Origin: Candidatus Uhrbacteria bacterium CG_4_10_14_3_um_filter_41_21
GTDB lineage: Bacteria > Patescibacteriota > Patescibacteriia > UBA9934
Assembly (NCBI GenBank): GCA_002782865.1
Contig: PFJC01000022.1
Coordinates: 1 to 60,029, forward strand
Reading direction: 5' to 3'
DNA length: 60,029 nt
In this document: positions 12,220 through 59,906 of the stretch, piece after piece
How positions within the stretch are numbered: position 1 is the stretch's first letter
Layout of the letters: each line of letters starts with the position of its first letter
Made by a program: the position numbers and the translations under genes
Notes under the pieces: generated by a model
Told to the model about the DNA's origin: nothing
Database searches by the model: none
The model's input: the letters and a program-made list of their open reading frames with translations, nothing else

Positions 12220-13338
12220 ATGTTCTGCTTCATTCTCTTCGCTATCGCCATGTTCTTCAGTTCGGCAAGCGCCAAGACCCACGCGGTCGTGGTTGGCGTG
12301 GACGCGCCGGCGCTCGAAGGAATATCGGCCGTGGCGAGCGCTGCCTACAACTGCGTGCGCGTATCGGAGATCATCAACAACTCGGACAGCGAGGCCCGCG
12401 CCCTCTGCGCGGAAAATGCCAGTCGCAATCAAGTGATGGCCGCTTTTGCCGACGCTGCCAGCCAGGCAAGCGACGGCGAAACTGTATTTTTCGCCTGGTT
12501 CGGTCACGGGTTCGTGATCAAGGAATCGGGAGAAAAGGGCTTTGTGCCTGTGGACTGGGATCCCGAAGATGACACCAGCGCCATTTGGCTGGAGCGGGAC
12601 ATCAAGTCGGTCATGCGCCTGCGACCGACCGTGACGTTCAGGATTATCCTGGACGCCAATCACCGCGCCAACTATCGATGGGAAAAGGCCAGTAAAGAAC
12701 TCGGCTATGTGACCCTGCATGGGCCAACGGCTGAGGACTTCGCCGACCTGGACAATGTGCTGGTGATCTCGGCCGGTAGCGGCGACAATTTCCTGAATCC
12801 GAGCGACTCAAAGTTCGGAACCGCTGTCGTCGCGGCACTCGGTGCGCGCGAAAACGGCGTGCTCACGATCGCCGTTTTCGCGACCAAGCTCGCGAGCGTC
12901 TACCGAGAGGCAGGTGGCAACCCGACAGGTGTAGAAAGCTGGATGGAAAACTCCTCGGCTCTCTTCACCTGGCCGGCCGAGTTTGCGCCCCCGCCCAAGC
13001 AGGCACTCAAGTGGCGCCGGCCGGTAATGTATGCCGGCGCTGGCATGGCCTTGGCTGGATTCGGCGTGTCTAGCGTTGAGTGGCTTCGAACGAAGTCGCT
13101 CCAGCAGCGCCTGATCGACTACGACTACGAGTCAATCAACGGGGAGGACGGCTACTACGACCTCCTCGACCGGCGCGACAACGCCTTTCGGGGGAGTCAA
13201 ATCGGGGCAATCGCAGGCGCAGTCGGCGCAGTCGCCGGTGGAGCCGCCTTCGCGCTGGAATGGCGCGCCGACCATTTCACTAGCCTCGCGCCTATGGCTG
13301 GCGAAGCCAACGGCCTTCTCTTCCTTGGACGGTTCTGA
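12220..13338 (+). CDS. GC-rich cassette 2: secreted, membrane-anchored caspase-like (peptidase C14-like) protein, catalytic Cys apparently replaced
   Basis: A GGAG lies 5 nt before the ATG at 12220. Signal peptide MFCFILFAIAMFFSSASA. Contains HAVVVGVD and the His motif VFFAWFGHGF, but ILDANH where caspase-fold enzymes have D-x-C-H. Gly/Ala-rich C-terminal TM segments. Strong GC3. Confidence 0.55.
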   Translation: MFCFILFAIAMFFSSASAKTHAVVVGVDAPALEGISAVASAAYNCVRVSEIINNSDSEARALCAENASRNQVMAAFADAASQASDGETVFFAWFGHGFVIKESGEKGFVPVDWDPEDDTSAIWLERDIKSVMRLRPTVTFRIILDANHRANYRWEKASKELGYVTLHGPTAEDFADLDNVLVISAGSGDNFLNPSDSKFGTAVVAALGARENGVLTIAVFATKLASVYREAGGNPTGVESWMENSSALFTWPAEFAPPPKQALKWRRPVMYAGAGMALAGFGVSSVEWLRTKSLQQRLIDYDYESINGEDGYYDLLDRRDNAFRGSQIGAIAGAVGAVAGGAAFALEWRADHFTSLAPMAGEANGLLFLGRF

Positions 13339-13355
13339 ACCGTCTGCGTGCCAAA

Positions 13356-13391
13356 GCGGCGCAACCTCTCGGTTGCGCCGCATCTTTTTTT
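13356..13391 (+). terminator. GC-rich intrinsic terminator of cassette 2
   Basis: GCGGCGCAACC-TCTC-GGTTGCGCCGC hairpin followed by ATCTTTTTTT. Confidence 0.85.
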
Positions 13392-13420
13392 CAGAATATG
13401 TCTCGTAAAACATTTAATTC

Positions 13421-26445: not shown

Positions 26446-26475
26446 AAAAAAGAACCCCGAAAGGGGTCTTTTTTG
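26444..26475. terminator. Bidirectional terminator between rmuC and the TrmB-like gene
   Basis: A-run, CCCC-GAAA-GGGG hairpin, T-run. A nearly identical hairpin lies at 28389-28418. Confidence 0.8.
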
Positions 26476-26476
26476 T

Positions 26477-27292
26477 TTACTTTGTTGGTAATTCGCCCCA
26501 AAGTCTTTCAAATATTGTTCTGTGAAAATCAGCTAACTCTTTTGATTCAATAATAACCGCCATTTTTTCTTTCCAAGAAGCAATCAATATTTTATTGTTA
26601 TAAATATTTACTTCAGGTGTAAAGGAATCACTTTGAGGTAAAAACCTGGTATTTCTCATTTCGTTGCTATCTTTTTGAGCTCGCTCGTAAGATGATTTAT
26701 TGCGCGGCAGAATTGCTCTAATAAATACTCCGGCGTCCGATCGACGCTGATAGTACTTAGGAAAGAAATTCGGAAGTGCCTCGTGCATTGTTTCTACGTT
26801 TGCATAGGCGAGAATTGGATCTTTTGATGTCAGCGTATCTTCATACGCTTCGCGCATACCTTTCTCGTCTTCATAAAATTGAACCTTTGGCCGAGTACTA
26901 TCCTTATATTGTTTTGAGATAAGCTCTGGCAAAAGTTTTTCAACTTCAGCTTTCTTCTTTGTTAATCTTTCCGTAGTGTTTTCGATTTCTCGGTCAATAT
27001 AACTTAAGAGTCGTTTTGGCTCTAGCGCTTCAAAATATGTTTGATTACCTCTTATATTTTTGCTTATCAAGCCTTTTTTCATTAAAGAGCTAAGAATATC
27101 GTACATAGTTGTACGGTTAAGGTCTGCCTTTTTAGCAATTTCTCCGGCTCTTGCCTCACCAAGCTCGAGCAAACCAAGATAGGTTGCAATTTCTTTTTCT
27201 GTAAAATTCAGATCTCGAAGTGTTGTTTCAAGCATATTTTGTGGAAATAATAACGACACTTTATTTATATAATATTCGCTAAATTTTGTCAA
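26477..27292 (-). CDS. TrmB-family transcriptional regulator
   Basis: Winged HTH (YLGLLELGEARAGEIAKKADLNRTTMYDILSSLMKKGLI) plus a TrmB-like C-terminal domain. The real start may be the Met at about 27235. Confidence 0.75.
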   Translation of the reverse strand: MTKFSEYYINKVSLLFPQNMLETTLRDLNFTEKEIATYLGLLELGEARAGEIAKKADLNRTTMYDILSSLMKKGLISKNIRGNQTYFEALEPKRLLSYIDREIENTTERLTKKKAEVEKLLPELISKQYKDSTRPKVQFYEDEKGMREAYEDTLTSKDPILAYANVETMHEALPNFFPKYYQRRSDAGVFIRAILPRNKSSYERAQKDSNEMRNTRFLPQSDSFTPEVNIYNNKILIASWKEKMAVIIESKELADFHRTIFERLWGELPTK

Positions 27293-27383
27293 TACTAAAT
27301 TTCTATTTATAGTCTACTCTCGACAAAAGTAGAATTTATTGATATTTTGATCGGTCGAAATCAATCGACAAGTGGAGGCAGTT

Positions 27384-27794
27384 ATGAACGTTACATGTGA
27401 GGTCTCTCTCCTGAATGTGGCGCCCTGTACGAAATTCAGACAAGAATACAACGCATGTGTGTTCCGTGTCCTCAAGGTGATGGCCAAGGCGTGGTTTTAT
27501 GCCACGCCGGGTGTCCGCGCCAAAAGCGCGGATGTCCAGGTCAAGGAAGGTCAGAACTTCCGGGCCGTCATCAGCGTTCAGTGTTGCAGGCAGAACGACG
27601 GCATCGTCGACGAGCCGGTGGTGTTTACCGGAAAAACTGCCGATGAAGTTCATCGGCAGATGGATCTTCTCACCGAGGTGGAAGGCACCCCGGTAGAGCA
27701 TGGCCTGAAGATCGATCCCTTCGAGCTTCACCGCGAAGCTCGAAGTCGAGTCTACTCGACCTGGATCGGCGTGGTTTTTGTCCACGCCATCTAG
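27384..27794 (+). CDS. GC-rich cassette 3a: small soluble Cys-containing protein (136 aa), unknown function
   Basis: A GGAGG lies 5 nt upstream of the ATG at 27384. GC3-enriched in this frame. A possible TCGACA-N17-TATTTT promoter lies at 27321-27349. Confidence 0.5.
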   Translation: MNVTCEVSLLNVAPCTKFRQEYNACVFRVLKVMAKAWFYATPGVRAKSADVQVKEGQNFRAVISVQCCRQNDGIVDEPVVFTGKTADEVHRQMDLLTEVEGTPVEHGLKIDPFELHREARSRVYSTWIGVVFVHAI

Positions 27795-28002
27795 AGCCCC
27801 ACTCGCGGCGTGCGCCCTTGTGTGCACGCCGACCGATCAATGTGTTTTTCAAAAGAAGAACTTATTGACTGGGTCTAGCTCATTTTTCCGCGGCCTCCAA
27901 AAAAAAGTGCCGCTCAGGCGCTTTAGCAGATAAAATTAGATAGGCCCGACTTTTTAAGCAGTTTTTACTGGTGACATGCCTTTTCAAAAAAAGAGGTAAA
28001 AG

Positions 28003-28344
28003 ATGGAATTACGGGAATTCAACGCCTTGCAAGAGGCGCTGCGAGAAGTAGAAATACTTGTCGCAAGGTGGGCCTGGCACAGAATCAGGCCAAAAATTCC
28101 GTGGACAGAAAGTGGCCGTTATGAAAACGGCGAAGAAGCAGCCGGCGTCTTCTGGGATTTCCAGAAAGATGTTCGAGCAGTAAGCGCGGACGTCCCGCTA
28201 TGGGCGTTTCATACCAGCAACGGCCCGGGTAGGCGGCCGATCAGCGAGCTCGAACACACGCTCGCTGTCACCATTCTTCAGGGCAATGACGAAAATGACG
28301 AAAAGGAAGTAATGAAAATCCTCGATGAGCGTTTTCCGCTCTGA
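28003..28344 (+). CDS. GC-rich cassette 3b: small Trp-rich soluble protein (113 aa), unknown function
   Basis: A GAGG lies 6 nt upstream of the ATG. Intermediate GC. Followed by hairpins and the shared bidirectional terminator. Confidence 0.5.
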   Translation: MELREFNALQEALREVEILVARWAWHRIRPKIPWTESGRYENGEEAAGVFWDFQKDVRAVSADVPLWAFHTSNGPGRRPISELEHTLAVTILQGNDENDEKEVMKILDERFPL

Positions 28345-28388
28345 ACTTCATATCCCCGACTGCACATGCGGCCGGGGTTTACTGCAGA

Positions 28389-28418
28389 CAAAAAAGAGCC
28401 CCGAAAGGGGTCTTTTTT
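28389..28418. terminator. Bidirectional terminator (cassette 3b / rpsT)
   Basis: AAAAAAGAG-CCCC-GAAA-GGGG-TCTTTTTT. Confidence 0.8.
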
Positions 28419-28420
28419 GC

Positions 28421-28690
28421 TTACTTTGCAACTGTCTTGGCCAAAGCCGCTGACATTCTTGAGATTATACGAGCTGATTTGTTTTGCTTGTAAATATTTT
28501 TTACAACTGCTTTGTCCAACTTCTGCTGAAGTTCTGGAATTATTGCCTTTGCTTCGTCAATATTCTTGGCTTCAAGCAATTTTCGGAAATGTCGGCGCAT
28601 TGAGTCAATCTCGGCGCGAACAATCTTATTTGCTTCAAATCGTTTTATACTCTGTCGCAAAGCCTTTTTTGCATGTGCTAATTGTGGCAT
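28421..28690 (-). CDS. rpsT: 30S ribosomal protein S20
   Basis: MPQLAHAKKALRQSIKR.. is typical of S20. Confidence 0.9.
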   Translation of the reverse strand: MPQLAHAKKALRQSIKRFEANKIVRAEIDSMRRHFRKLLEAKNIDEAKAIIPELQQKLDKAVVKNIYKQNKSARIISRMSAALAKTVAK

Positions 28691-30377: not shown

Positions 30378-30399
30378 AAGAGCATTTTACCATGATTGA

Positions 30400-30428
30400 T
30401 TGACAAATACGCCTATTTATGATATATT
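30400..30428 (+). promoter_or_regulatory. Sigma70-type promoter of GC-rich cassette 4
   Basis: TTGACA (30400-30405), 17-nt spacer, TATATT (30423-30428). Confidence 0.6.
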
Positions 30429-30467
30429 TTCTTGTCGACAGATTAACCATTCGACATAGGAGTCGAA

Positions 30468-31121
30468 ATGTTCGAGCACGCTTCCCCTGCTTTCAATCTT
30501 GTTCGCAGGCACTTCGTTGAGCTCGACCAATTCGGACTCAACGGCATCACTGTCACCTTTGTGTTCACGACCATCTTCGGCCTGCTAGGGTCTTGGGGTC
30601 TGTACAAACAGATCCAGATGGTCAAAAAGCGCGGCGGACAATCCGTGTCTGTGATCTGGAGCATCAGCTTCATGTTCATGTTCGCAAGCTACTACCTGTA
30701 CGGACTCAGCGCCGGCAAACTGGCCATTTTGATGCAGTCATTTCTACGCGTCCCATTCTACCTGATTTTGCTTCCGTTGCTCTACCGCGCAAACGCGGGA
30801 TTCAGCAAAAAGGAATGGACGCTCGTGATCGCCTTGACCACATCGCTCATCGTGTCCTATTGGGACATCGGCAAAGTGTTCCTGGGTCTATCGTGGCTTG
30901 GCGCGATCATCGCTGCCGATCAGCCCTACAAGATCTGGAAAAACCGAACCCGTGGTAGCGTCTCGATAGAACTCATGGCCTCCTTCGAGGCGAGCATCAT
31001 CTTCTGGCTTGCATATGCCTTCGTGACACACGACGGCTATATCAAAGCCTGGGCAGTGGTATACTTCACCGTCTACACGACGACAATTATCTTCTACTAC
31101 CTGCCGAGACACCGCACCTAG
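30468..31121 (+). CDS. GC-rich cassette 4: 7-TM protein with two PQ-loop/SWEET-like repeats (tentative)
   Basis: A GGAG lies 5 nt before the ATG. About seven hydrophobic helices. Two loop motifs follow TM1 and TM5 (YKQIQMVKKRGGQSVSVIW and QPYKIWKNRTRGSVSIELM), like PQ-loop repeats. Confidence 0.5.
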   Translation: MFEHASPAFNLVRRHFVELDQFGLNGITVTFVFTTIFGLLGSWGLYKQIQMVKKRGGQSVSVIWSISFMFMFASYYLYGLSAGKLAILMQSFLRVPFYLILLPLLYRANAGFSKKEWTLVIALTTSLIVSYWDIGKVFLGLSWLGAIIAADQPYKIWKNRTRGSVSIELMASFEASIIFWLAYAFVTHDGYIKAWAVVYFTVYTTTIIFYYLPRHRT

Positions 31122-31136
31122 CCCGCTCGCGAGAAA

Positions 31137-31173
31137 GCGCCCGCCACTTCTCGCTGGCGGGCGCATCTTTTTA
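31137..31173 (+). terminator. GC-rich intrinsic terminator of cassette 4
   Basis: GCGCCCGCCA-CTTCTCGC-TGGCGGGCGC hairpin followed by ATCTTTTT. It is the only hairpin between the polA stop and rnhB. Confidence 0.8.
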
Positions 31174-31184
31174 TTAAAAAAATC

Positions 31185-33800
31185 TTATTCAAAATCATTC
31201 ATCTCTCCCCAATTTTTTCCAACCTCGCAATCAACCACCAACGGCACATCAGCCGTCCAAATGGCTTCCATAATTCTTTTGATTTCAGGAACCACTTTTT
31301 TCAGATCATTTTCAGCAACTTCAAAGACTAATTCATCGTGAACTTGCAAAAGCATTTTCACATCAAGGCCGGATTTTTTAATCCATTCAGCCACTTCGAG
31401 CATAGCCATTTTTACCAAATCAGCCTGTGTCCCTTGAACCGGCATATTCACGGCCATGCGCTCGGCCGAGGCGATTAACATCTGAATTCCGGATTTGATA
31501 TCAGGCAAATACCTGCGCCTGCCAAACAAAGTTTCAACATAGCCGTCGTGATGAGCTTTGGTTTTGGCCTCATCAATATAACTTTGAATCCCCGGATAAA
31601 CATCAAAATAACGCTGAATAAACTCACGCGCTTCTTCTTGAGAAAATCCGGTTGCCTTGGCCAAATTACGCACCCCCATTCCGTACAAAATTCCAAAATT
31701 GATTGCCTTGGCCGCGTAACGCTCTTCTTTGGTAACATCATCCTCTTTTTTACCTAAAATTTCCGCCGCTGTTCGTCGATGAATATCAGCTCCATCTTTA
31801 AATGCCTGCAAAAAAGCTTTGTCTTTGGAAATCACGGCCGCCACTCTAAGCTCAAACTGCGAATAATCAGCCGCAAATAAAACTTTTCCTTTTGGCGCCA
31901 CAAAAGCCTTGCGAATTTCCTGTCCCATTTCCGATCTGGCCGGAATATTTTGCAAATTCGGGTCAGACGATGACAAACGACCGGTGGCGGTTATGGCTTG
32001 ATTAAAAGTAGTGTGAATTCGACCGTCTTCTTTGATCAACTTTGGCAAGGCATCGATATAAGTTGATTTTAGTTTTGAAAACTCACGATATTCGCTAATC
32101 ATTGGAATAACTTTATGCGCATCCCACAATTTTTCCAACTCACTGGCAGCGGTTGAGTAGCCGCTTTTTGTTCTTTTGATTCCCTTGGTCGGCAATTCCA
32201 AATCCTCAAACAAAAGTTGAGCCAATTGCGCCGGTGAATTGATATTGAATTCTTGATCAGCGATTTTGTAAATTTCTTTTGTTAAATTATCCAATTGCTC
32301 ACCAAAAGTTTTTGAAAGATTATGCAAATGTTTTTTATCAACTTCAATGCCATCAAGTTCCATTTGATAAAGAACCGAAATAAGAGGGAACTCAATTTCT
32401 CCCGCCAGCTTTAACGATTTTTCAGCTTCCAACTCTTTTTGCAAGGCTTTGTGTAAACGATAAACAAGCTCTGCTTTGGCAACAGCTGATTTGGGAAGTT
32501 GAGTTCCACTTAAAAAGTCATTGGCACATTCATCAAGATCATAGGCGCGACTGCCGGCTGAGAGTAAATAGGCGGATAATTTAGTATCGAAGGTTGGTAG
32601 GAGGTAGGAGGTAGGAGGTAGGGCGTGAAAAATCTCTTTAAGATCATGACCGATCAAAAGTTTTACTTTAGATAGCAAGGATCGAACTTGCTCGAGCTGT
32701 TTTTCGTCCGGTGATTCCAGAACCGCAGATTTATTTCCGTCAAACAAAACAATTGTTTTGGTCTCGCCTCCAAACAGATCCGGCTGTCCGCGCTCGATGT
32801 AAATAACAAGTTCTTCTTTTCTAAGCTCGGACAAATCCACAACCGATATATTTTTTCCCTTCTTTGACCCATGATCACCATAATCAATGTCACCCATATC
32901 ACCCTTTTTACCCCTTTCACCCCCCCCTTGATACTTTTCCAACAAGCGCTTAAACTCCAAATCCCGATAAGACGCAATCAGCTTTTCAACATTTGGCTCT
33001 TGCACTTTGGCATCACTGATTTTAAAATCCTTTAATTTGACATCCTGCACCACTGTAACCAGTCTTTGCATTTGCGCCACTGTTTTTTCTTGACCTTCAA
33101 GTTTTTTGGCGTAACGCGGAGCAATCTTGCCATCCTTAAGGGCTGACAAAAGATTTTTAATTGATCCAAATTCTTTTAAAAGCTCTGTCGCGCCTTTTTG
33201 ACCGATTCCCTCGATGCCGGGAATATTGTCAGAGCTGTCGCCCATCAAAGCTTTTAAATCAATTAACTGATCTGGCTTTAAGCCATAGCGTTCAACTACA
33301 GCTTTTTCATCATAAACCTTGGTTTCAGATAACCCTTTTACAAACGCAACCACCTCGACATCATCATCAACGAGTTGCAAAGCATCCATATCGCCGGTGA
33401 TAATCATCACTTTTAAATCTGACTTGGGGCCGTACTTTTTGGCCAGCGTTCCGATGACATCGTCAGCTTCAAAACCCTCGGCTGAAATTGAAGGGATGCT
33501 GTGGATATCAAGCAAATCCTGAATCCAACCGATTTGTGCATAAAGCTCGTCTGCCTTTTTTTCCCTATGCGCTTTGTAAGCTTCAAATTCTTTGTGACGA
33601 AAAGTTTTGCCGGGTAAATCCCAGGCTACAGCCATATAGTCGGGCTTAAACTCGTCCCGCATTTTTTCTATCACCATTGCGAAACCATAAACAGCGTTCA
33701 CAACTCGGCCATCTTTGGTGGTGAGTGGTGGAATTGCATGCCAAGCGCGGTGAAGAAGGGCATTTCCATCTAAAACTAGGAATATTTTCTTTGATTTCAT
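31185..33800 (-). CDS. polA: DNA polymerase I
   Basis: 5'-nuclease N-terminus (LVLDGNALLHRAWHA) and polymerase motifs DYSQFELRVAA and QVHDELVFEV. Start set at the ATG at 33800 (MKSKKIF); the tracked 43-aa extension covers a GC-rich leader. Confidence 0.95.
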   Translation of the reverse strand: MKSKKIFLVLDGNALLHRAWHAIPPLTTKDGRVVNAVYGFAMVIEKMRDEFKPDYMAVAWDLPGKTFRHKEFEAYKAHREKKADELYAQIGWIQDLLDIHSIPSISAEGFEADDVIGTLAKKYGPKSDLKVMIITGDMDALQLVDDDVEVVAFVKGLSETKVYDEKAVVERYGLKPDQLIDLKALMGDSSDNIPGIEGIGQKGATELLKEFGSIKNLLSALKDGKIAPRYAKKLEGQEKTVAQMQRLVTVVQDVKLKDFKISDAKVQEPNVEKLIASYRDLEFKRLLEKYQGGGERGKKGDMGDIDYGDHGSKKGKNISVVDLSELRKEELVIYIERGQPDLFGGETKTIVLFDGNKSAVLESPDEKQLEQVRSLLSKVKLLIGHDLKEIFHALPPTSYLLPTFDTKLSAYLLSAGSRAYDLDECANDFLSGTQLPKSAVAKAELVYRLHKALQKELEAEKSLKLAGEIEFPLISVLYQMELDGIEVDKKHLHNLSKTFGEQLDNLTKEIYKIADQEFNINSPAQLAQLLFEDLELPTKGIKRTKSGYSTAASELEKLWDAHKVIPMISEYREFSKLKSTYIDALPKLIKEDGRIHTTFNQAITATGRLSSSDPNLQNIPARSEMGQEIRKAFVAPKGKVLFAADYSQFELRVAAVISKDKAFLQAFKDGADIHRRTAAEILGKKEDDVTKEERYAAKAINFGILYGMGVRNLAKATGFSQEEAREFIQRYFDVYPGIQSYIDEAKTKAHHDGYVETLFGRRRYLPDIKSGIQMLIASAERMAVNMPVQGTQADLVKMAMLEVAEWIKKSGLDVKMLLQVHDELVFEVAENDLKKVVPEIKRIMEAIWTADVPLVVDCEVGKNWGEMNDFE
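32591..32623. repeat. Heptanucleotide tandem repeat (GTAGGAG x3 + GTAGGGC) inside polA
   Basis: Read directly. On the coding strand it encodes LPPTSYLLP. Confidence 0.85.
32868..32930. repeat. GGGTRA-rich dispersed repeat embedded in frame in polA
   Basis: The coding strand reads GGGGGGGTGAAAGGGGTAAAAAGGGTGATATGGGTGAC. It encodes GGERGKKGDMGDIDYGDHG between the 5'-nuclease region and the rest of the protein. Confidence 0.7.
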
Positions 33801-34119: not shown

Positions 34120-34314
34120 GCCTTTGCTCCTTAGGAGCTATAGCCGGAGCACAGCCAATGAAAATTGTGATCATTCAAAATTAGTGAGCAAAGAAATTAG
34201 GATGGGATGCTAGGCAAAAACCGAGCACGATCGAGACGTACTGAAATGTACGGCGAGGACGAGCACAAGTTTTTAACAAAGCAGACCGCTTAATTTCAAA
34301 GCGAACAGATAAAT

Positions 34315-34390
34315 GGCGAGTATCGTCCAACGGCTAGGACAGCGGTTTGTGGTACCGTTAATGAGGGTTCGATTCCCTCTACTCGCCCCA
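34315..34390 (+). tRNA. tRNA-His (anticodon GTG) with encoded G-1 and CCA
   Basis: An extra 5' G precedes the GCGAGTA/TACTCGC acceptor. Loop TT-GTG-GT, T-arm GAGGG-TTCGATT-CCCTC. Confidence 0.9.
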
Positions 34391-34463: not shown

Positions 34464-34490
34464 GATGTGGTCACTAAGCGACCACATTTT
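34464..34490 (+). repeat. 27-bp direct repeat, left copy, flanking GC-rich cassette 5
   Basis: GATGTGGTCACTAAGCGACCACATTTT is identical to 35301-35327. It is itself a hairpin (ATGTGGTC/GACCACAT) plus a T-run. Confidence 0.95.
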
Positions 34491-34511
34491 CTTTTCAAAA
34501 ATAAAATCGGC

Positions 34512-34552
34512 TATAAAAACAACCCGCCGTCGCTCTCGGAGCAATGGCGGGT
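34512..34552 (-). terminator. GC-rich terminator of cassette 5
   Basis: Reverse strand has ACCCGCC..GGCGGGT followed by TGTTTTTA. Confidence 0.6.
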
Positions 34553-34600
34553 GGGGGTGCACCCACGTCAGCAGGAGAACTCACGCAGGTGAGCTATATC

Positions 34601-34861
34601 CTAGCTGTCACGGGTGTGCGAGCTAGACTTCTGTCGCCATTCCTCGTACCTGATCTGCTTGATGGCCTTGTACAATATCAGGCCGAAGGGGGCCACAATG
34701 CTACCGAAGGTCAGCAGGGCGAGGAACCAGTCTGGCGATCCCTGCTGGTACCAATCGACTCCGAAGACCAGGAGCATCAGAACGCCCATTAGCCAAATGA
34801 CGAGACACGCAAGCGCGTCGCCCTGGCCGAAGATGTGAGGCTCGGGAAGTCGAGGCGCCAT
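34601..34861 (-). CDS. GC-rich cassette 5, gene B: small 2-TM membrane protein (86 aa)
   Basis: The ATG shares one nucleotide with the upstream stop (TAATG). A GAGGTG lies 5 nt upstream. TM segments LACLVIWLMGVLMLLVFGV and FLALLTFGSIVAPFGLILY. Confidence 0.55.
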   Translation of the reverse strand: MAPRLPEPHIFGQGDALACLVIWLMGVLMLLVFGVDWYQQGSPDWFLALLTFGSIVAPFGLILYKAIKQIRYEEWRQKSSSHTRDS

Positions 34862-35199
34862 TACTTCACCTCTTGCTGAACCGTCGCCACCTTCTTGTGC
34901 AGGTGAGCAAAGATCTTGTAGAAGAGCCAGCAGATCAGGGCTATCGGGACGGCGAGCAGGAGGGTAGCCATCAGCTCGAAGACACTCGTGCACAGCAGCG
35001 GCGACATCGCGAAGAAGATGAGGCAAAAGACGAAGAGGGCCTTGTTGAAGACCATCAGCGACATGACCTTCTCGGACTGCTCCGGGTATTCACACTGCAG
35101 GTAGTAGCGCATCACGTTCCAGTTGATCAGGTTGTAGATTGTCCCGATGAACAGAGCGGTGGTGCCGATGTAGAGCGTGACGGGCAAGGGCAGGTTCAT
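34861..35199 (-). CDS. GC-rich cassette 5, gene A: small 3-TM membrane protein (112 aa)
   Basis: A GGAGG lies 5 nt upstream of the ATG at 35199 (MNLPLPV). TM segments include LYIGTTALFIGTIY, ALFVFCLIFFAMSPLL and LLLAVPIALICWLFY. Confidence 0.55.
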   Translation of the reverse strand: MNLPLPVTLYIGTTALFIGTIYNLINWNVMRYYLQCEYPEQSEKVMSLMVFNKALFVFCLIFFAMSPLLCTSVFELMATLLLAVPIALICWLFYKIFAHLHKKVATVQQEVK

Positions 35200-35264
35200 G
35201 GATTCCTCCAGAGGTCGGCTGATCCCAGCCGTGGGGTTGCCGATCCGAGTGGAAACGACGCTCA

Positions 35265-35293
35265 AACATAACAGAAATAGGATAATCCGTCAA
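35265..35293 (-). promoter_or_regulatory. Sigma70-type promoter of cassette 5
   Basis: Reverse strand has TTGACG, a 17-nt spacer and TATGTT. Confidence 0.55.
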
Positions 35294-35300
35294 TCGAGCT

Positions 35301-35342
35301 GATGTGGTCACTAAGCGACCACATTTTAAGCGACCACATTTT
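35301..35342 (+). repeat. 27-bp direct repeat, right copy, plus a 15-nt tandem partial copy
   Basis: 35301-35327 is identical to 34464-34490. AAGCGACCACATTTT is then repeated at 35328-35342. Confidence 0.95.
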
Positions 35343-35366: not shown

Positions 35367-36047
35367 ATGAATATCCTCTTCGGCACCTCAAAAAAACAAG
35401 ATAAACAAATGCGCCTGCTAGCTGGCGAGGAAGCAATGAAAAATCGAGCTGTCTTTTTTTCAGCACTCAAAATCGATCCGGCCAACATCACCTCCGGCTT
35501 GCTGGCTCACGGAAAAACCGTCGTACTGGTCAATAATAAAAACCTTGGCCAAATAATTTCCGGCACAGACGCGCTGGTCACAAATCTAACTAATGCTTGC
35601 CTGACCATCACAATTGCCGACTGCGTTCCAATCTTCTTTATTGATAAAAACCACGGCGCTATCGGTCTGGCTCACGCCGGTTGGAGGGGAGTGCTTCAAA
35701 ATATCGTCAGCGAAGTTACACAAACCATGGCGCGTGAGTATTTATCAAATCCAGCCGAGATTGAGGTTTACATCGGCCCACATTTGATGAGCTGCCACTT
35801 TGAGGTTAAGGCTGATGTTGAAAGTAAATTTCATGAATTTGCAGATGCCATTATTCATCACCAAGAAAAAACTTTTATTGATCTTCAAAGCATTATTGTT
35901 AAACAACTAATTTCTGCCGGACTCCAAAACAAAAACATACACAGAACTGTCGAGTGTACATTTTGTAATCAAGATTATTTTTCTTACCGACGCGACAAAC
36001 CGGAGGATGTTGAATCTCAAGTCGCTTATATTATCAAGCGCGACTGA
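35367..36047 (+). CDS. pgeF: PgeF/YfiH (DUF152) purine nucleoside phosphorylase / laccase-domain protein
   Basis: Contains HGAIGLAHAGWRG, IGPHLMSCHFEV and CTFCNQDYFSYRRD. A TATAAT lies 7 nt upstream of the ATG (leaderless-like). Confidence 0.85.
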   Translation: MNILFGTSKKQDKQMRLLAGEEAMKNRAVFFSALKIDPANITSGLLAHGKTVVLVNNKNLGQIISGTDALVTNLTNACLTITIADCVPIFFIDKNHGAIGLAHAGWRGVLQNIVSEVTQTMAREYLSNPAEIEVYIGPHLMSCHFEVKADVESKFHEFADAIIHHQEKTFIDLQSIIVKQLISAGLQNKNIHRTVECTFCNQDYFSYRRDKPEDVESQVAYIIKRD

Positions 36048-36048
36048 T
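36031..36048 (+). repeat. 18-bp direct repeat, left copy (contains the pgeF stop)
   Basis: TTATCAAGCGCGACTGAT is identical to 36868-36885. Confidence 0.95.
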
Positions 36049-36117
36049 TTACAATCAGGAAATTTTCTCAAATTGCACAAAATACGCACTTTTATGCGTA
36101 TTTTTGGCCTAAATGCC

Positions 36118-36146
36118 TTGACAAAAGGCTGTTTTTGTGATACATT
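36118..36146 (+). promoter_or_regulatory. Sigma70-type promoter of GC-rich cassette 6
   Basis: TTGACA, 17-nt spacer, TACATT. Confidence 0.55.
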
Positions 36147-36201
36147 ACTCGGTCGAGTGGTAGTATTCCACTGCCCTCACAACACGGCCAAGGAGGCCAA
36201 C

Positions 36202-36786
36202 ATGCGCAACCTGATCCAGATCGCTCTCGCCACCCTGCTCGCCGCCTGCGCCAACCAGCAGAGTGGCCCCTCGAGCCTGGGCGAGCCCGCCCACACGGGC
36301 GGCACGAAGATCGCTGGCCCTGGCGACAGCGCGGTCGAGTTCATCACCTGGCACTTCCCCCAGGACAGCACCACCAGCAACATCACCTTCACCATGCTGG
36401 TGCCCGAGTGCGACTCCATCGGTTCGTGCCGTTGGATCTCGGACATTTACGGCTACACCCAGCACGACGTCCGGACGGCCCCGGTGCGGACGGTGGTGCA
36501 GGACGCCATCGACATCTGCTGGCTGACCGACGAGAACGACGAGGTGGTGTACAACACCAACTCGCTACCCGACGGCGACGGCAACGTGTCCTTCCGCATC
36601 CTCAAGTCCACCGGCTCGGTGACCCTCGTCTGCGACATCAGCAGAGATGCCGAGGCCGTGACGATCGGTACCAATCTCCAAGATCTCACCAACTACAAGT
36701 ACGTCGGCGAAGACTTCGAGTGGTACGGCACCTACCTCAACCTGAACTCCTGGACCAAGCCCGCCTCGAGGGTCACGATCCGGTAG
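36202..36786 (+). CDS. GC-rich cassette 6: lipoprotein (194 aa), unknown function
   Basis: An AAGGAGG lies 5 nt upstream of the ATG at 36202. Signal peptide with lipobox MRNLIQIALATLLAAC. Strong GC3. The other long ORFs here are shadow frames. Confidence 0.6.
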   Translation: MRNLIQIALATLLAACANQQSGPSSLGEPAHTGGTKIAGPGDSAVEFITWHFPQDSTTSNITFTMLVPECDSIGSCRWISDIYGYTQHDVRTAPVRTVVQDAIDICWLTDENDEVVYNTNSLPDGDGNVSFRILKSTGSVTLVCDISRDAEAVTIGTNLQDLTNYKYVGEDFEWYGTYLNLNSWTKPASRVTIR

Positions 36787-36812
36787 ATCCGGTAGTCACG
36801 CACCCCCTCGAC

Positions 36813-36849
36813 GACGCATCCGTCGCCGTTCGGGTGCGTCATTTTTTTT
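36813..36849 (+). terminator. GC-rich intrinsic terminator of cassette 6
   Basis: GACGCATCCG..CGGGTGCGTC hairpin followed by ATTTTTTTT. Confidence 0.85.
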
Positions 36850-36867
36850 AATTAAACTTTTACCAAC

Positions 36868-36885
36868 TTATCAAGCGCGACTGAT
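36868..36885 (+). repeat. 18-bp direct repeat, right copy (contains the MFS gene stop on the reverse strand)
   Basis: Identical to 36031-36048. Its reverse complement encodes the ..ISRA-stop end of the MFS gene. Confidence 0.95.
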
Positions 36886-38052
36886 CGCTCGGTGCATTGG
36901 GGTAATCACCAAAAGTAAAAATATAAATATCACAATCCCCCAAACCAACAACGCGGCCTGCAAGGGAAGGACCCCAAGCAAAACCCCGACCCCGGCTACT
37001 CCGGCTGTATGAACTATTCCTGAAGCCAGATGACCAAATGAAAGTACGGTCGCCCGCGCTCCGCTATCTATTTGATGATTTATAACATCATTGCTGACAA
37101 TACCCAAAGCAATATAAAGCGCCATCGCTATCAGCATTAGACCTATCCAAATGATAGGATTAGTAATTAATCCAAGCGCCATTGCCACCAAACCGCTCGC
37201 CAGCAAGCCACCGCTAAAAATCCAAGCGTCACTGACGCCTTTTTTTGTCAGCCAACCGCCCAGAAACGGTGCCAACATACCGACAAATCGTTTGGCAACA
37301 TAAACAAAACTGATAAGCACGGCGGTTAAGCCGAAATTGGAAAGTAAAATCTGATCAAAGTTATGAAAAGTATCCATGGCGCTTGTAAAAAATGCCACCG
37401 GCAAAAGCGCCCAGAGCACTACCGGTTTTGTTGAAAAAATCTTTAACGCTTCTCGAATTTGTTTCCAAGTAAGTGAGTAAAGATCAAACTTAACGGCAGA
37501 TGCATTGGCGGTTTTCCCAAAAGTTGAAATCAAAACGCCGGCTAACACAAATTGTAAAATACCAATTGTAAACGGAAGCCACCATTGCCACATATAAGCC
37601 AAACCGGCCGTGGCCATAAACAAAATACCAACACCTTGCGAAACTGATTTTGCTCGAGCCGGCAGCTTTCGATACTCATGCTCGCGTCCCAAAACTTTTA
37701 GACGCTCAAAGAAAATGAGCAAAAGTGATCCGGTCATCAAACTACCAGAAACATAATATAAAATATGACCGGCAAACACCCATTCAAACGAGGCCCCCAG
37801 ATAAAGCGCCATGGCGATTGCCTGACCCGACATGGAAATCAGTAAAGATTTTTTGTGGCCAATGGCGTCGGCGATTGCCCCGCTCGGTACTTCAAAAATC
37901 AATTCCAAAACCGCGGAAACTGTAAAAATTAACGCGACCTGTTCAACACTCACGCCAACATCAATCATAAAAAGGGCAATGATTGGAAGGGGATAGCGCT
38001 TAATTAAAGCGCGAAAAATGTAATATTTTTTGATGTCGTCCAATCTTTTCAT
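36871..38052 (-). CDS. MFS-type transporter
   Basis: 393 aa with about 12 TM segments in a 6+6 arrangement. Confidence 0.65.
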   Translation of the reverse strand: MKRLDDIKKYYIFRALIKRYPLPIIALFMIDVGVSVEQVALIFTVSAVLELIFEVPSGAIADAIGHKKSLLISMSGQAIAMALYLGASFEWVFAGHILYYVSGSLMTGSLLLIFFERLKVLGREHEYRKLPARAKSVSQGVGILFMATAGLAYMWQWWLPFTIGILQFVLAGVLISTFGKTANASAVKFDLYSLTWKQIREALKIFSTKPVVLWALLPVAFFTSAMDTFHNFDQILLSNFGLTAVLISFVYVAKRFVGMLAPFLGGWLTKKGVSDAWIFSGGLLASGLVAMALGLITNPIIWIGLMLIAMALYIALGIVSNDVINHQIDSGARATVLSFGHLASGIVHTAGVAGVGVLLGVLPLQAALLVWGIVIFIFLLLVITPMHRAISRA

Positions 38053-38057
38053 AATTA

Positions 38058-38978
38058 TTACGCTTTACCGTGATACTTTTTATGAACCTTTCGGAGCTGT
38101 CTATCGGTCACATGCGTGTAAACCTGCGTGGTAGTAATCGATTCATGACCAAGCATGGACTGAACTGAACGGATGTCAGCGCCATTGCGTAACAGATCAG
38201 TGGCAAATGTATGACGCAAAGTGTGTGGAGTTATTTTTTTGGTGATACCCGCGGCTGAAGCATACTTTTCCATAATTCTTTGCACTGATCGTGGTGAAAC
38301 CGGCATCGATCCTCTGGAAGTCTTGGCGCGATCGTGACCGACAAACAAGTATGGAGATGTGTCGTGCCTGGCATCTAAATACTCTTTGATGGCTTTTCTG
38401 GAATCATCTGACAAAAAAACCACTCGGTGTTTGCTCCCTTTGCCTTTAACTGTAAACTCGTCCCGCCGAAGATTAATATTGTCGATTTTTAAGTTAGCAA
38501 GCTCGGAAACACGCAGTCCTGTTGAAAAAAGAGTACGCACAATCGCTCTATCCCTCTTGCCAATAATGCCCGGCGCGTCTTGAAGAGCCCCAAATATCCG
38601 CCGTAGTTCATCTTCTTCTAAAAACTCAACCTTACGCGTTCCTTGTTTAGCAAGTTCAATCTTATCCGCTGTCATTGATTTAACATCACGCCTAGCTAAA
38701 TATCGCAAAAACGCTCGAAGGGCAATTAAGTGATAATTCTGCGTACTCTTTTTTAAATTCACTTCGTCTCGACCCTCAATTTCACGATTTAAATACAATC
38801 TATATTTCCGCACCATCTCGGGCTCTATTTTAGATGGGTGTGGCCAGAGTGCCCAGTCGGCAAATCGGCGCAAATAAAAATCATAATTGCGGACAGTTTT
38901 GCTCGATCGTCCACGTTCAACTTCCAAATATTCCAAAAACTCTTTGATGTACTTCTCTAGCATTGATTTTGTGCTCAT
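38058..38978 (-). CDS. xerC: Tyrosine site-specific recombinase, XerC/XerD-like
   Basis: Contains TGLRVSEL, HTLRHTFATDLL and GHESITTTQVYTHV (R..HxxR..Y catalytic set). Start set at MSTKS. It is the only recombinase seen in the window. Confidence 0.85.
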   Translation of the reverse strand: MSTKSMLEKYIKEFLEYLEVERGRSSKTVRNYDFYLRRFADWALWPHPSKIEPEMVRKYRLYLNREIEGRDEVNLKKSTQNYHLIALRAFLRYLARRDVKSMTADKIELAKQGTRKVEFLEEDELRRIFGALQDAPGIIGKRDRAIVRTLFSTGLRVSELANLKIDNINLRRDEFTVKGKGSKHRVVFLSDDSRKAIKEYLDARHDTSPYLFVGHDRAKTSRGSMPVSPRSVQRIMEKYASAAGITKKITPHTLRHTFATDLLRNGADIRSVQSMLGHESITTTQVYTHVTDRQLRKVHKKYHGKA

Positions 38979-50314: not shown

Positions 50315-50375
50315 AGCGCCCGGGTTACCACCGAAGTCGTAAATTCCCTTACGCGAAGGTGGTAACCCGGGCGCT
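50315..50375. repeat. GC-rich palindromic element, copy A (18-bp perfect arms)
   Basis: AGCGCCCGGGTTACCACC .. GGTGGTAACCCGGGCGCT. The arms are about 16/18 identical to the arms of the element at 58789-58844. Confidence 0.85.
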
Positions 50376-50417: not shown

Positions 50418-50449
50418 AACCATTATCTGACGATCGTCATTTAATGGTT
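50418..50449. repeat. 32-nt nested palindrome, copy 1
   Basis: AACCATTATCTGACGATCGTCATTTAATGGTT has outer arms AACCATTA/TAATGGTT and inner TGACGATCGTCA. It is about 27/32 identical to 52601-52631. Confidence 0.8.
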
Positions 50450-50530
50450 AGAGTTGAGGCCCAAGATACTGCCTCAGGCTTATTCGTATTCGATCGGTCT
50501 CCCCCGTAACTGGGGGGGGTTAAGAGGGCG

Positions 50531-50568
50531 TAAAAACAAAACAGCGCACCCCGGTGGAACGCGCTGTT
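50531..50568 (-). terminator. Intrinsic terminator of GC-rich cassette 7
   Basis: Reverse strand has AACAGCGC..GCGCTGTT followed by TTGTTTTTA, about 170 nt after the stop codon. Confidence 0.7.
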
Positions 50569-50740
50569 CCTAGGTGCGCTGTACGCGCTTAGGGCGTTGG
50601 CGTCGTGCCCCGCCAGTCGTTTTCTGGCTCATCCGACGCCCCAGCGGGAATCGGGAGCTGGGGTGACAATTCGTCTATGTAGACGATGGACTTACGGACT
50701 TGATCCTCGAAGCCCGCAGGAATGAATATCGAGCTACGAG

Positions 50741-50992
50741 TCATATCGCGTAGACCATCAGCCCGTCATCTTCCTCGGCACAGAAGCCGGGAATGGCGCC
50801 GATTAGGCACGGACGCACTGACCTATTCCCCGCATACAGTTCATTGATGCCGCCCTCGCAGAACATCCTGTCCTGCGACCAGACCTCGGTCTTTACACCA
50901 GAACAGACAGACATCATCTCTGCCCGTTGTTCCTGCATGTAACGACACCCTGCCAGCAGGCCGAGCACGAGCATCATCAGAAAACGTTTCAT
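50741..50992 (-). CDS. GC-rich cassette 7: small Cys-rich lipoprotein (83 aa)
   Basis: A GAGGG lies 5 nt upstream of the ATG. Lipobox signal peptide MKRFLMMLVLGLLAGC. Five further Cys residues. Confidence 0.55.
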   Translation of the reverse strand: MKRFLMMLVLGLLAGCRYMQEQRAEMMSVCSGVKTEVWSQDRMFCEGGINELYAGNRSVRPCLIGAIPGFCAEEDDGLMVYAI

Positions 50993-51044
50993 TTTTTCCC
51001 TCGATCTGGCAAACCGGCCAGTGCGGATGTCGTTGTGACAACAA

Positions 51045-51073
51045 TTTATATAATTATTTTACTGTTTTGTCAA
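51045..51073 (-). promoter_or_regulatory. Sigma70-type promoter of cassette 7
   Basis: Reverse strand has TTGACA, a 17-nt spacer and TATAAA. Confidence 0.55.
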
Positions 51074-51126
51074 TCCTAAACCTCTATTCCCTCTATCCTG
51101 CTATTATCTATTACCTCTACTAATCG

Positions 51127-58697: not shown

Positions 58698-58723
58698 GGG
58701 CGAGGCGTCGCCTCGCCCATTTG
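58697..58723 (+). terminator. GC-rich hairpin after dnaN
   Basis: GGGCGAGGC-GTC-GCCTCGCCC hairpin followed by ATTTG. A second hairpin AAGGGCGGGG-TTT-CCCCGCCCTT follows. Confidence 0.5.
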
Positions 58724-58788
58724 AACATATGGTAAGGGCGGGGTTTCCCCGCCCTTTGATGTAGGGCGTATGGCATATCGATTTGACG

Positions 58789-58844
58789 CGCCCAGGTTAC
58801 CGCCGAGGCCCCGCCTAATTTTTGGGTCGGCAGTAACCTGGGCG
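58789..58844. repeat. GC-rich palindromic element, copy B
   Basis: CGCCCAGGTTACCGCCGA .. TCGGCAGTAACCTGGGCG (17/18 complementary). The arms are homologous to copy A at 50315-50375. Confidence 0.8.
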
Positions 58845-58913
58845 TGATTGATGCACAGAACCCGCCCCAGCATAGCCCGGGGCGGGTTTAGATTTGCGTA
58901 GATGACGAAGAGT

Positions 58914-59906
58914 CTACGTGCTCTTGCGGCCGGCAGCCCTTTCCTTGCACTTGCGGCAGGGCTTCTGGGTCGCGGCGCACTTCTTGCACCGCCCGGATGG
59001 GATCTTCAGCCCGGCCGGAGCCTTCGGTCGGGGCTCGCGGAACTTCTTGCCGACGCACCCGCGCTTGCGCTCACCGACGCCGTTCGCGATGAGCACGAAG
59101 GACATCTGGGCGCGGACGGGGTCGTAGGGCCTGCCGGCACCGTGTCCGACGACCTTCGTGGTGGGCATAGGGAGGATGTTGTCGAGGCGACCACTGCCGA
59201 TCGGCTGGCCGAGGAGCCGGCTCATCTCCTCGGCACCACTGCCGGGGAGAAGTTCGATCGTGCCGTCCTGCAGGAGCCGGACGGCACACGGCGCGCAGAT
59301 GAGCACCAGCGAGCGCTTGTTCACTCGCACGGCGCGCATTTCCTCGATGACCGCTTCCCCATTCTGGGAACTGCACAGGGAGGGACAGACCCGGTGCACC
59401 GTGCACTCGGTCAGGATGGTGCCGTGGTTCGGCTTCTTGCGAGAGAATTCCTCGGGCAGCACCCGCCCGCGCTGGACGATGCGGTCGATGATCGTCGTGG
59501 GCGTCGGCATCATCTGGACCGGCAGAAAGGCCGGCTCGAGCCCGCCCTCAACCAGGATCATGCCCGGGTTTTCGCTTCGGGGGTTGATGCCGGGCATCTT
59601 CTTTTCAGCGCAGGCATCGCAGACCCGCGCCTTTGGGTTGGGGCTGAAAAGCCCGTCTTTGATCCTCCCGCCGGAGAGGTACTCAACCTTCGCGCCCAGC
59701 GCGAAGGGGTTGATTCGACCGCCCAGGTGGTCAGGAACGAGCGCCTTGCAGAATGCGCAAGGCTCGGCACTCTTGCTCCAGGCGCGCCCGGTCTTGCACT
59801 CCCGGCCGTGCTTGATCCGCTCGCCCTCGTGGAGGGCGTTTTGGCAAGGCGAGCCGCTCTCGCCATTGCAGATACAGTAATCGGTTGTCTTCTCGGTGTT
59901 TCCCAC
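58914..59906 (-). CDS. GC-rich cassette 8: Cys-rich (multi-CxxC) basic protein, 330 aa, unknown function
   Basis: GTG start with a GAGGTG 4 nt upstream. The reverse frame has pronounced G/C third positions. Contains CICN..C, CAFC, CDAC, CAPC and a CKKC..CRKC tail. The equally long forward ORF 58902-59984 is an Ala/Arg/Leu/Gly-rich shadow. Confidence 0.6.
   Translation of the reverse strand: MGNTEKTTDYCICNGESGSPCQNALHEGERIKHGRECKTGRAWSKSAEPCAFCKALVPDHLGGRINPFALGAKVEYLSGGRIKDGLFSPNPKARVCDACAEKKMPGINPRSENPGMILVEGGLEPAFLPVQMMPTPTTIIDRIVQRGRVLPEEFSRKKPNHGTILTECTVHRVCPSLCSSQNGEAVIEEMRAVRVNKRSLVLICAPCAVRLLQDGTIELLPGSGAEEMSRLLGQPIGSGRLDNILPMPTTKVVGHGAGRPYDPVRAQMSFVLIANGVGERKRGCVGKKFREPRPKAPAGLKIPSGRCKKCAATQKPCRKCKERAAGRKST

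Follow-up and report, generated by a model that had tools for sequence, protein, structure and literature searches.

The kind of event closest to the one reported here is insertion with long, variable target duplication, together with the acquisition of phage morons. Insertion with long target duplication is known from genome comparisons of restriction-modification systems, chiefly in naturally competent species, and has no mechanistic explanation (PMC2853133; Furuta, Abe and Kobayashi 2010). Long duplications that vary between insertions, of about 19 to 26 bp or longer, are also made by the Mycoplasma element IS1630 (PMC2853133). For their part, phage morons are independent transcription units added between phage genes (PMC3594210). 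Here we analyse a 60,029-bp stretch of contig PFJC01000022.1 (the window), in which an 819-bp, GC-rich cassette encoding a predicted lipoprotein lies between pgeF and a gene for a major facilitator superfamily (MFS) transporter, flanked on each side by a copy of the 18-bp host sequence TTATCAAGCGCGACTGAT. The closest named homologues of pgeF and of a nearby recombinase were from Candidatus Uhrbacteria, placing the organism within the Patescibacteria, whose genomes are tiny, which depend on other cells, and in which gene acquisition is poorly known.

Duplicated host sequence at the boundaries of the cassette

Exactly two copies of TTATCAAGCGCGACTGAT were found in the window, at 36031-36048 and 36868-36885, even when up to three mismatches were allowed. 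The expectation by chance, obtained from shuffled sequences, was 0.04, and two or more matches occurred in none of 100 shuffles, bearing out the perfect 18-bp duplication proposed in the initial annotation. The flanking-repeat score at the lipoprotein cassette was 18, compared with a 95th percentile of 10 for random window pairs of equal spacing. The sequence enclosed by the two copies spans 36049-36867.

The last five codons and the stop of pgeF, which encodes a peptidoglycan editing factor, fall within the left copy, so that the gene ends in A-Y-I-I-K-R-D-TGA. Read on the reverse strand, the right copy supplies I-S-R-A-TGA, the end of the MFS gene. Both gene ends had been read in this way from the sequence, and correctly so, with pgeF assigned to the Pfam family Cu-oxidase_4 and the transporter to MFS_1; homologues of the former carry the name PgeF in Candidatus Uhrbacteria and Patescibacteria. 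The two stops lie 14 nt apart inside TTATCAAGCGCGACTGAT, and the repeat exceeds the overlap by 3 nt at one end and by 1 nt at the other. The 18-mer reads as a partial palindrome, ATCAnnCGCGnnTGAT.

Contigs encoding the exact lipoprotein sequence, at least 18 in all, were recovered from JGI, ENA and Logan assemblies. The junctions are not an assembly artefact, since they recur in these contigs of different samples and assemblers. Sixteen same-strain loci were about 99.96% identical to the window, and each of those spanning the site contained the cassette with both junctions; a single nucleotide polymorphism (36128) was present inside the cassette across this population. Look-ups of the exact PgeF and lipoprotein sequences returned the same strain only, always with the cassette, and the sole return of a pgeF scan of genome contigs was an unrelated Lachnospiraceae match. 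A scan of a metagenome contig collection for the conserved pgeF end gave no match; since the identical JGI contigs were missed as well, this collection evidently does not contain the samples concerned. Some same-strain contigs stop at 36127 or 36838; these ends may hint at strain variation but prove nothing.

The MFS gene is intact in the window, but 9 of the 13 same-strain loci that extend to 37200 had it frameshifted by a CC insertion there, and a T insertion at 37240 had the same effect in two. The gene was split in the gene calls of same-strain contigs and heavily decayed in L017, a relative described below, and may have been decaying since the overlap was broken.

Empty site in a relative and a second cassette

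An uninterrupted site was found in L018, a 1.9-kb Uhrbacteria-like contig from the ENA metagenome assembly ERZ28564412, whose nucleotide identity to the window was 81.8% in pgeF and 86.5% at the 3' end of the MFS gene. The L018 copy of pgeF runs to position 1530 and the convergent MFS gene to 1517, which gives the 14-nt overlap predicted in the initial annotation for the empty site. The repeat is present there as a single copy, within a 19-nt segment (1514-1532) that aligns with both copies of the window, and the left module of the cassette is absent.

L018 is collinear with the window on both sides of two cassettes, and both are missing from it. The second, neighbouring cassette is of the same kind (Table 1), and the third-codon-position GC content (GC3) of its two open reading frames (ORFs) was 0.88 and 0.76. 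Its insert (34491-35300) is bracketed by a perfect 27-nt repeat, GATGTGGTCACTAAGCGACCACATTTT, at 34464-34490 and 35301-35327, with a hairpin inside; an extra 15-nt tandem copy of the repeat extends the right junction to 35342. In L018, GATGTGGTCACTAAGCGACCACATTTT is single copy and carries no insert. The repeats measure 18 nt at one site and 27 nt at the other, and thus the length of the duplication varies between sites. Compared in this way, the two adjacent units appear as insertion/deletion polymorphisms with direct repeats of host sequence at their limits. The signature of a staggered-cut insertion, or target-site duplication, initially ascribed to the lipoprotein cassette is supported by the empty site of L018 and was the same at the neighbouring cassette.

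The start-to-start spacing of the flanking repeats was 837 nt at both cassettes, with inserts of 810 and 819 nt that differ in content. This equality may be a coincidence or a size constraint.

The same comparison bears on the view that no insertion took place, the lipoprotein gene being ancestral, the 18-bp identity a coincidence or convergence and the L018 site an unrelated deletion, or the junctions being assembly chimeras. In accordance with this view, L018 is not an outgroup, and in L019, a more distant relative, another gene, not an overlap, lies between pgeF and the MFS gene. However, an exact 18-mer completing two genes on opposite strands would be inexplicable without duplication, the L018 boundaries match the repeats to the base at two separate cassettes, the GC3 of the lipoprotein gene (0.92) is incompatible with long residence, and at least 18 independent assemblies agree. 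We give this explanation almost no weight, less than any other considered here.

Search for mobility machinery

The initial annotation had reported no mobility gene in the cassette, and scans against Pfam, NCBIfam and PHROGs gave no such match. No transposase, integrase or phage family was found among the cassette ORFs or the approximately 25 window ORFs scanned, and none of the nine cassette ORFs tested matched PHROGs. The matches of the window ORFs were to housekeeping and other non-mobility functions (dnaA, dnaN, polA, trigger factor, H+-pyrophosphatase, DNA methyltransferases and others). No terminal inverted repeats joined the ends of either cassette. When the cassette ends were compared across the 60-kb window and between the two cassettes, they had no second copy, and the 18- and 27-nt repeats shared no core.

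These results are relevant to the possibility that the cassette is a non-autonomous transposable element mobilized in trans, the transposase being encoded at another place in the genome and making long variable duplications such as those of IS1630 (19-26 bp) and IS1634. The variable 18- and 27-nt duplications do resemble the IS1630 range (PMC2853133). Moreover, a fragment of an IS1595-family transposase adjoins the homologous lipoprotein cassette of another locus, L029. However, the IS1595 family makes short, fixed duplications, which counts against such an element, as do the missing terminal inverted repeats at both verified cassettes, the unrepeated cassette ends and the lack of any transposase among the window ORFs scanned. 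We therefore regard movement in trans as improbable.

The cassette has a tyrosine recombinase gene 1.2 kb away, which raises the alternative of site-specific recombination by this Xer-type enzyme, or of integron-like capture, with the 18-bp repeat as an att- or dif-like core. Some sources name homologues of the recombinase "tyrosine recombinase/integron integrase", and the partial palindrome of the 18-mer would suit such a core. Nevertheless, the protein scored 240.8 bits with the XerA-type model NF040815 (cut-off, 220) and 138 bits with the integron-integrase model (cut-off, 265), passing the former and failing the latter. It is 67 to 84% conserved across Uhrbacteria, including neighbourhoods that lack pgeF, the MFS gene and the cassettes, and by these comparisons is a housekeeping Xer-type enzyme, with nothing to link it to the insertion. 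The absence of a common core between the 18- and 27-nt repeats is also contrary to this alternative, as is the promoter that the cassette carries for itself, and inspection by eye showed no attC-like element (no attC model was run). Xer-type or integron-like capture is thus very improbable, more so than movement in trans.

A different payload at the same insertion point

The same insertion point is occupied in L017 (GCA_030688725.1, Candidatus Uhrbacteria). Starting from the first base after the repeat, 98 nt of L017 aligned without gaps to window positions 36049-36146, with 79.6% identity, and the match takes in the hairpin and the promoter through the -10 box. On the other side, TTTTACCAAC is the last sequence ahead of the decayed MFS side in L017, as in the tail of the window cassette. 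Between these shared ends, L017 contains a short leader with a terminator, a GC-rich lipoprotein gene unrelated to that of the window (BLASTP E value, 0.77) and a second small ORF. Since the outer ends are shared at about 80% identity and the payloads are unrelated, the frame would be old and the payload young, and the payload within this old outer frame appears to have been replaced at least once. By a neutral amelioration estimate calculated from the divergence at 4-fold degenerate sites, a GC3 of 0.92 would fall to about 0.75 over the distance between the window and L017. The GC3 observed is still 0.92, and the present payload would therefore be younger than the frame.

By nucleotide identity, L017 and L018 were mutually closest (83.8%); at 4-fold degenerate sites, the window and L018 were closest, with 0.24 differences versus 0.43 between the window and L017. 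By neither measure was L018 the outgroup among the three relatives compared. Its empty site is therefore more likely to be a precise loss, unless the cassette was gained twice at the same nucleotide, and is less likely to represent the untouched ancestral state. In the simplest history, a cassette would have been inserted once, long ago, L018 would have lost it precisely between the repeats, and the payload would have been replaced later; alternatively, a cassette would have been gained twice, at the same nucleotide. In the three relatives, the locus is apparently represented, to the base, in a filled, an empty and a re-filled state.

L017 also contains a 66-nt direct repeat (3732-3797 and 5969-6034; 98% identity), with a weaker extension to about 100 nt, that brackets pgeF and the downstream cassette. 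Its copies sit at the 3' ends of two different GC-rich cassettes.

Proposed mechanism of insertion

On sequence comparison, the locus holds an insertion bounded by a duplication of host sequence, of a length that varies between sites, precisely absent from a relative and encoding no machinery of its own. We consider it reasonably probable that a foreign unit was inserted, via staggered breaks, into the 14-nt pgeF/MFS overlap of an AT-rich, Uhrbacteria-like chromosome, with duplication of 18 bp. Breaks staggered by 18 nt would open the target, a linear DNA fragment would be joined to both ends, and gap filling would then produce the duplication. Selection would retain only those events whose duplication spans the whole overlap, the equivalent at the neighbouring site being the hairpin downstream of tRNA-His. 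Each copy of the repeat would in this manner complete one of the two genes, and the hairpin and terminator of the cassette would insulate the neighbours. The route of entry might have been natural transformation; Saccharibacteria have been shown to be naturally competent, as stated in PMC10633639, and uptake of foreign DNA by a Patescibacteria cell is therefore plausible. Recombination or slippage between the repeat copies could later remove the unit precisely.

Several points weigh against this model or its dating. The staggered-break step is pure inference, with no enzyme or intermediate identified. Significant flanking repeats were found at only three of the approximately eight GC-rich islands of the window, and the 39-nt pair at one of these, around a TrmB unit, is possibly not a target duplication, a relative, L021, already having the unit. 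The 18-bp length lies below the operational threshold of the published class (>30 bp), and the equal 837-nt spacing at the two neighbouring cassettes is left unaccounted for. Finally, the payload is dated as younger than its frame by neutral amelioration reasoning applied to a single short gene.

The spacing and the precise loss in L018 would be accommodated by integration of the Campbell type, in which a circle containing the cassette and one 18-bp copy would recombine with the chromosomal copy, the repeats representing the crossover region. The 837 nt would then be the size of the circle at both cassettes, and the common insertion point of the window and L017 would likewise be accounted for. 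Elsewhere, cassettes are bracketed by longer perfect repeats of terminator modules (55 to 60 nt in L032/L033 and 66 nt in L017), enough for homologous recombination, and a similar life cycle has been proposed for restriction-modification units flanked by long repeats (PMC2853133). Such a circle could come from excision between the repeats in a related cell, although the first-ever insertion would still need another mechanism. Against it, 18 bp is very short for RecA-type recombination, and no circular junction was observed. Furthermore, the repeats are host specific (the gene ends in one case and the hairpin downstream of tRNA-His in the other), so that circles must stem from the orthologous site of a relative. 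We thus hold Campbell-type integration to be unlikely, albeit the strongest competitor of insertion at staggered breaks.

Organization of the cassette

The initial annotation had divided the cassette into a hairpin, a TTGACA-N17-TACATT promoter, an AAGGAGG motif, the GC-rich lipoprotein ORF, a terminator and an AT-rich tail, all of which were located within its limits (Table 1). As far as its sequence indicates, the 819-bp segment is a complete transcription unit with its own upstream hairpin, promoter, leader, gene and terminator. The left-module hairpin (36079-36104) has a 10-bp stem, AAAATACGCA/TGCGTATTTT, with 100% complementarity, followed by T's, and a folding energy of -12.5 kcal/mol. 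In the predicted fold of the leader, the second hairpin presents the Shine-Dalgarno sequence AAGGAGG (36190-36196) within GGCC-AAGGA-GGCC, and the leader may be a cis-regulatory RNA. The N-terminal signal peptide of the lipoprotein, MRNLIQIALATLLAAC, ends in a lipobox of the form L-x-x-C. The terminator folded with a z score of -4.7, and none of 200 shuffles folded equally well. No Rfam family matched the cassette hairpin, the leader or the terminator.

The composition of the unit differs from that of its surroundings. The GC3 of the lipoprotein ORF was 0.92 versus 0.39 to 0.47 in pgeF (0.42), the MFS gene, the recombinase gene, polA and the RNase HII gene, and the right tail had a GC content of 0.15 when measured over 36841-36867, which includes the T8 run of the terminator.

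The textbook appearance of the promoter, ribosome-binding site and terminator had raised the suspicion of a synthetic construct. This was rejected on account of the independent environmental assemblies and the diverged natural homologues.

Table 1. Positions of the features described (window coordinates unless another locus is named)
Feature	Positions	Strand	Remarks
pgeF (peptidoglycan editing factor, Cu-oxidase_4 family), left host flank	35367-36047	+	Pfam PF02578, E value 1.3e-53
Left TTATCAAGCGCGACTGAT copy (putative target duplication)	36031-36048		pgeF stop at 36045-36047, plus a now unused copy of the MFS stop
AT-rich left module with terminator-like hairpin	36049-36116	+	Would insulate pgeF
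Sigma-70-type promoter, TTGACA-N17-TACATT	36118-36146	+	10 of 12 consensus matches; TG extended -10
55-nt 5' leader with two predicted hairpins	36147-36201	+	Fold, -18.9 kcal/mol
Payload ORF, predicted lipoprotein of 194 aa	36202-36786	+	Signal peptide, lipobox LLAAC; GC 0.64, GC3 0.92
GC-rich intrinsic terminator	36798-36849	+	Stem about 36798-36840; T8 run 36842-36849
18-nt AT-rich right tail	36850-36867	+	Last 11 nt, CTTTTACCAAC, abut the right repeat
Right TTATCAAGCGCGACTGAT copy	36868-36885		Reverse strand gives I-S-R-A-TGA, end of the MFS gene
MFS transporter, right host flank	36871-38052	-	Pfam MFS_1; intact in the window
Xer-type tyrosine recombinase (context only)	38058-38963	-	1.2 kb from the cassette; NCBIfam NF040815, XerA type
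Neighbouring cassette of the same kind	34464-35342	-	Minus-strand unit of a TTGACG-N17-TATGTT promoter, two small membrane ORFs and a terminator
Six further GC-rich islands	3979-4400, 12085-13400, 27300-28389, 30378-31185, 50449-51100, 58700-59990		
Shared modules of L033 (same in L032)	Promoter core 120-138 and 834-852; terminator 731-790 and 1551-1610		

The lipoprotein family and its probable donor

A word-indexed homology search found no relative of the lipoprotein, and the orphan status that this implied was overturned by an exhaustive HMMER search, which returned 11 relatives, the eight closest with 31 to 47% identity. These sequences make up a small but genuine family: the lipobox cysteine was retained in the seven homologues with the N terminus present, lipidation itself being predicted only, and Cys106, Cys144 and several other columns of the family alignment were invariant. 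No Pfam, NCBIfam or PHROGs family matched the protein, and no relative was found in viral contigs. An alignment-based AlphaFold model was all-beta, with a predicted local distance difference test score (pLDDT) of 83.5; the single-sequence model reached a pLDDT of 36. A search of the PDB with the lipoprotein model gave no match at an E value of 1e-3 or lower, the only matches being weak ones to antibody (immunoglobulin) variable domains, with a template modelling (TM) score of about 0.3, which were not interpreted. The predicted product is a surface lipoprotein, all-beta in fold and anchored in the membrane.

The homologues occur in GC-rich surroundings or as GC-rich units. L035 is a 67%-GC contig with metabolic genes, and the GC3 of its homologue (0.93) fits these surroundings. 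In L027, the homologue adjoins a GC-rich rsmE gene, and in L026, L029 and L032/L033 it is present as a GC-rich unit. Regulatory sequences were also conserved. Thus, the promoter core CTTGACAAAAGGCT was identical in L026 and L029, upstream of the homologous lipoprotein genes; a near-identical motif occurred in an unrelated AT-rich phage contig (one pattern match in the viral collection), and the core is therefore partly a generic consensus. The ribosome-binding region (C)CAAGGAGGCCAA was kept in L027, L029 and L035, and the CGCACCC...GGGTGCG terminator was kept behind the lipoprotein genes of L026, L029 and L032. Between the window and L029, the promoter and leader were 85.5% identical versus 64.7% for the coding sequences, and the L029 leader (1160-1217) was predicted to fold into the same two hairpins as that of the window. 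A GC-rich lineage was probably the source of the whole transcription unit, cut down to its intergenic borders, and the donor was probably a GC-rich organism of the same habitats, in which the lipoprotein family is compositionally native.

The transposase of L029 mentioned above is a frameshifted member of the IS1595 family (2012-2859) located directly downstream of the homologous lipoprotein cassette. This cassette is part of a run of GC-rich units (M23-peptidase-like, FHA-like and lipoprotein), and the M23-like unit also lies upstream of pgeF in L017.

Other GC-rich islands in the window and in relatives

About 12% of the 60-kb window falls in eight GC-rich islands, that is, the two cassettes and six more. 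Each island lies between housekeeping genes and consists of a TTGACA-type promoter, one or two ORFs of high GC3 without a significant family match, and a terminator; several of the ORFs are predicted membrane proteins or lipoproteins. Among the six further islands, a significant flanking repeat was detected only for the one inside 26446-28428.

In L032 and L033, two tandem cassettes with unrelated ORFs (one of 187 aa and one encoding the lipoprotein homologue) have an identical 19-nt promoter core and 60-nt terminator. Together with the pair formed by the window and L017, they suggest that payloads may be exchanged inside conserved regulatory frames. A broader proposal takes in the frame shared by the window and L017, the tandem modules of L032/L033, the 66-nt module at the ends of two L017 cassettes and the share of the window occupied by islands. 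In Uhrbacteria-like Patescibacteria, cassettes might be exchanged without mobility genes, GC-rich units being inserted at gene boundaries with long variable duplications, excised precisely, and their ORFs swapped within conserved promoter/terminator frames, which would either provide short arms for recombination or be recognized by an unknown enzyme. Taken as a whole, this joint proposal is speculative, and we would not expect all of it to hold.

The repeat pair at 26446-26484 and 28390-28428 is 39 nt long, with two mismatches. It combines a bidirectional terminator with the final 8 nt of rpsT, reused to form the end of a TrmB-like gene, and brackets a 1.9-kb TrmB unit with two GC-rich ORFs. 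As a third verified duplication it was rejected as uncertain, the enclosed TrmB unit being already present in L021.

Positions 30378-31185 of the window hold a SemiSWEET-like gene (GC3, 0.73), equipped with a promoter and terminator of its own, between polA and the RNase HII gene. The two flanking genes overlap by 13 nt in L021 (12171-12183), and no flanking repeat was detectable at this island.

Other repeats were also observed. Two similar GC-rich hairpins with 18-bp stems (GCGCCCGGGTTACCACC / CGCCCAGGTTACCGCC) are located at window positions 50315-50375 and 58789-58844, directly after the H+-pyrophosphatase gene and dnaN, each by the 3' end of a GC-rich cassette. At 2657-6708, a terminator-like 26-nt repeat (AAAAAGCAAAAATCCCCATTTCTGGG family) occurs six times, after successive small minus-strand genes, and a 74-nt repeat is present at 3905 and 4893. 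The spacer of about 195 nt between tRNA-Arg and tRNA-His (34120-34315) is conserved in L018 and recognizable in L021; it gave no Rfam match and may be a small RNA.

Comparison with known systems

At this locus, a ready-to-express gene for a surface protein entered a streamlined genome, leaving two overlapping genes undamaged and with no recognizable mobile-element machinery. What is new is a variant of a known but rarely recognized event, documented by a three-state comparison and with a mechanism that we infer. If reuse of the frame were general, it would be a new route for surface-protein turnover in episymbiotic bacteria.

Integron cassettes and Xer-dependent modules (pdif modules and IMEX elements) are likewise small single-gene units exchanged at a fixed place, with a tyrosine recombinase nearby. 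They differ in that the present cassette has its own promoter, with no attC- or dif-like shared site recognizable by eye (no attC or dif model was run). Its 3' end is an ordinary intrinsic terminator, its boundaries are host-specific duplicated sequence, and the neighbouring recombinase is of the XerA type, with no IntI. An integrase-mediated genomic islet would contain an integrase and a common att core; here the element has no integrase, and the repeats of the cassettes are unrelated host sequences. Unlike DDE transposons and miniature inverted-repeat transposable elements, the cassettes lack terminal inverted repeats, have ends that are unique in the 60-kb window, and are flanked by duplications of 18 and 27 nt, not by a fixed short one. 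IS1630 and IS1634 share with the cassettes long duplications that vary between insertions, but these elements encode a transposase and have inverted-repeat ends, neither of which is present here.

Phage morons show a closer resemblance. Like the cassettes, they comprise one or two genes under a promoter of their own and with a factor-independent terminator, differ in composition from their neighbours, lie between genes that are adjacent in relatives and often encode envelope or surface proteins, and in neither case is the insertion mechanism known. However, morons reside in phages and prophages, whereas the flanks here are chromosomal housekeeping genes (pgeF, polA, tRNA genes, rpsO and pnp), and target duplications are not a recognized feature of morons.

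The greatest similarity was found with the insertions with long target duplication. In both cases, one genome has a few genes that a collinear relative lacks, and the flanking direct repeats are single copy in the empty genome, here L018 for both cassettes. Similarly, the length of the repeat depends on the site, the 3' end of a flanking gene can form part of the repeat, a transposase, an integrase and inverted repeats are all missing, and the insert differs in composition from the genome. The initial annotation had judged 18 bp to be unusually long for a duplication; unusual it is, but it has a precedent in this class (PMC2853133). The published repeats range from 30 to more than 400 bp by the definition of the screen (>30 bp in 2010), compared with 18 and 27 nt at the cassettes verified here and 39, 55 to 60 and 66 nt at other candidate sites. 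The published cases carry restriction-modification cargo, which was proposed to cause the event by breaking DNA, whereas the cargo here is a lipoprotein gene without a Pfam or NCBIfam match (the PADLOC library was not searched) and, next door, genes for two small membrane proteins. The concept is thereby extended beyond restriction-modification cargo, and the idea that a nuclease of the cargo itself causes the event is therefore weakened. The locus also stands apart from the published cases in its Patescibacteria host and in an outer frame that has apparently been reused with different payloads.

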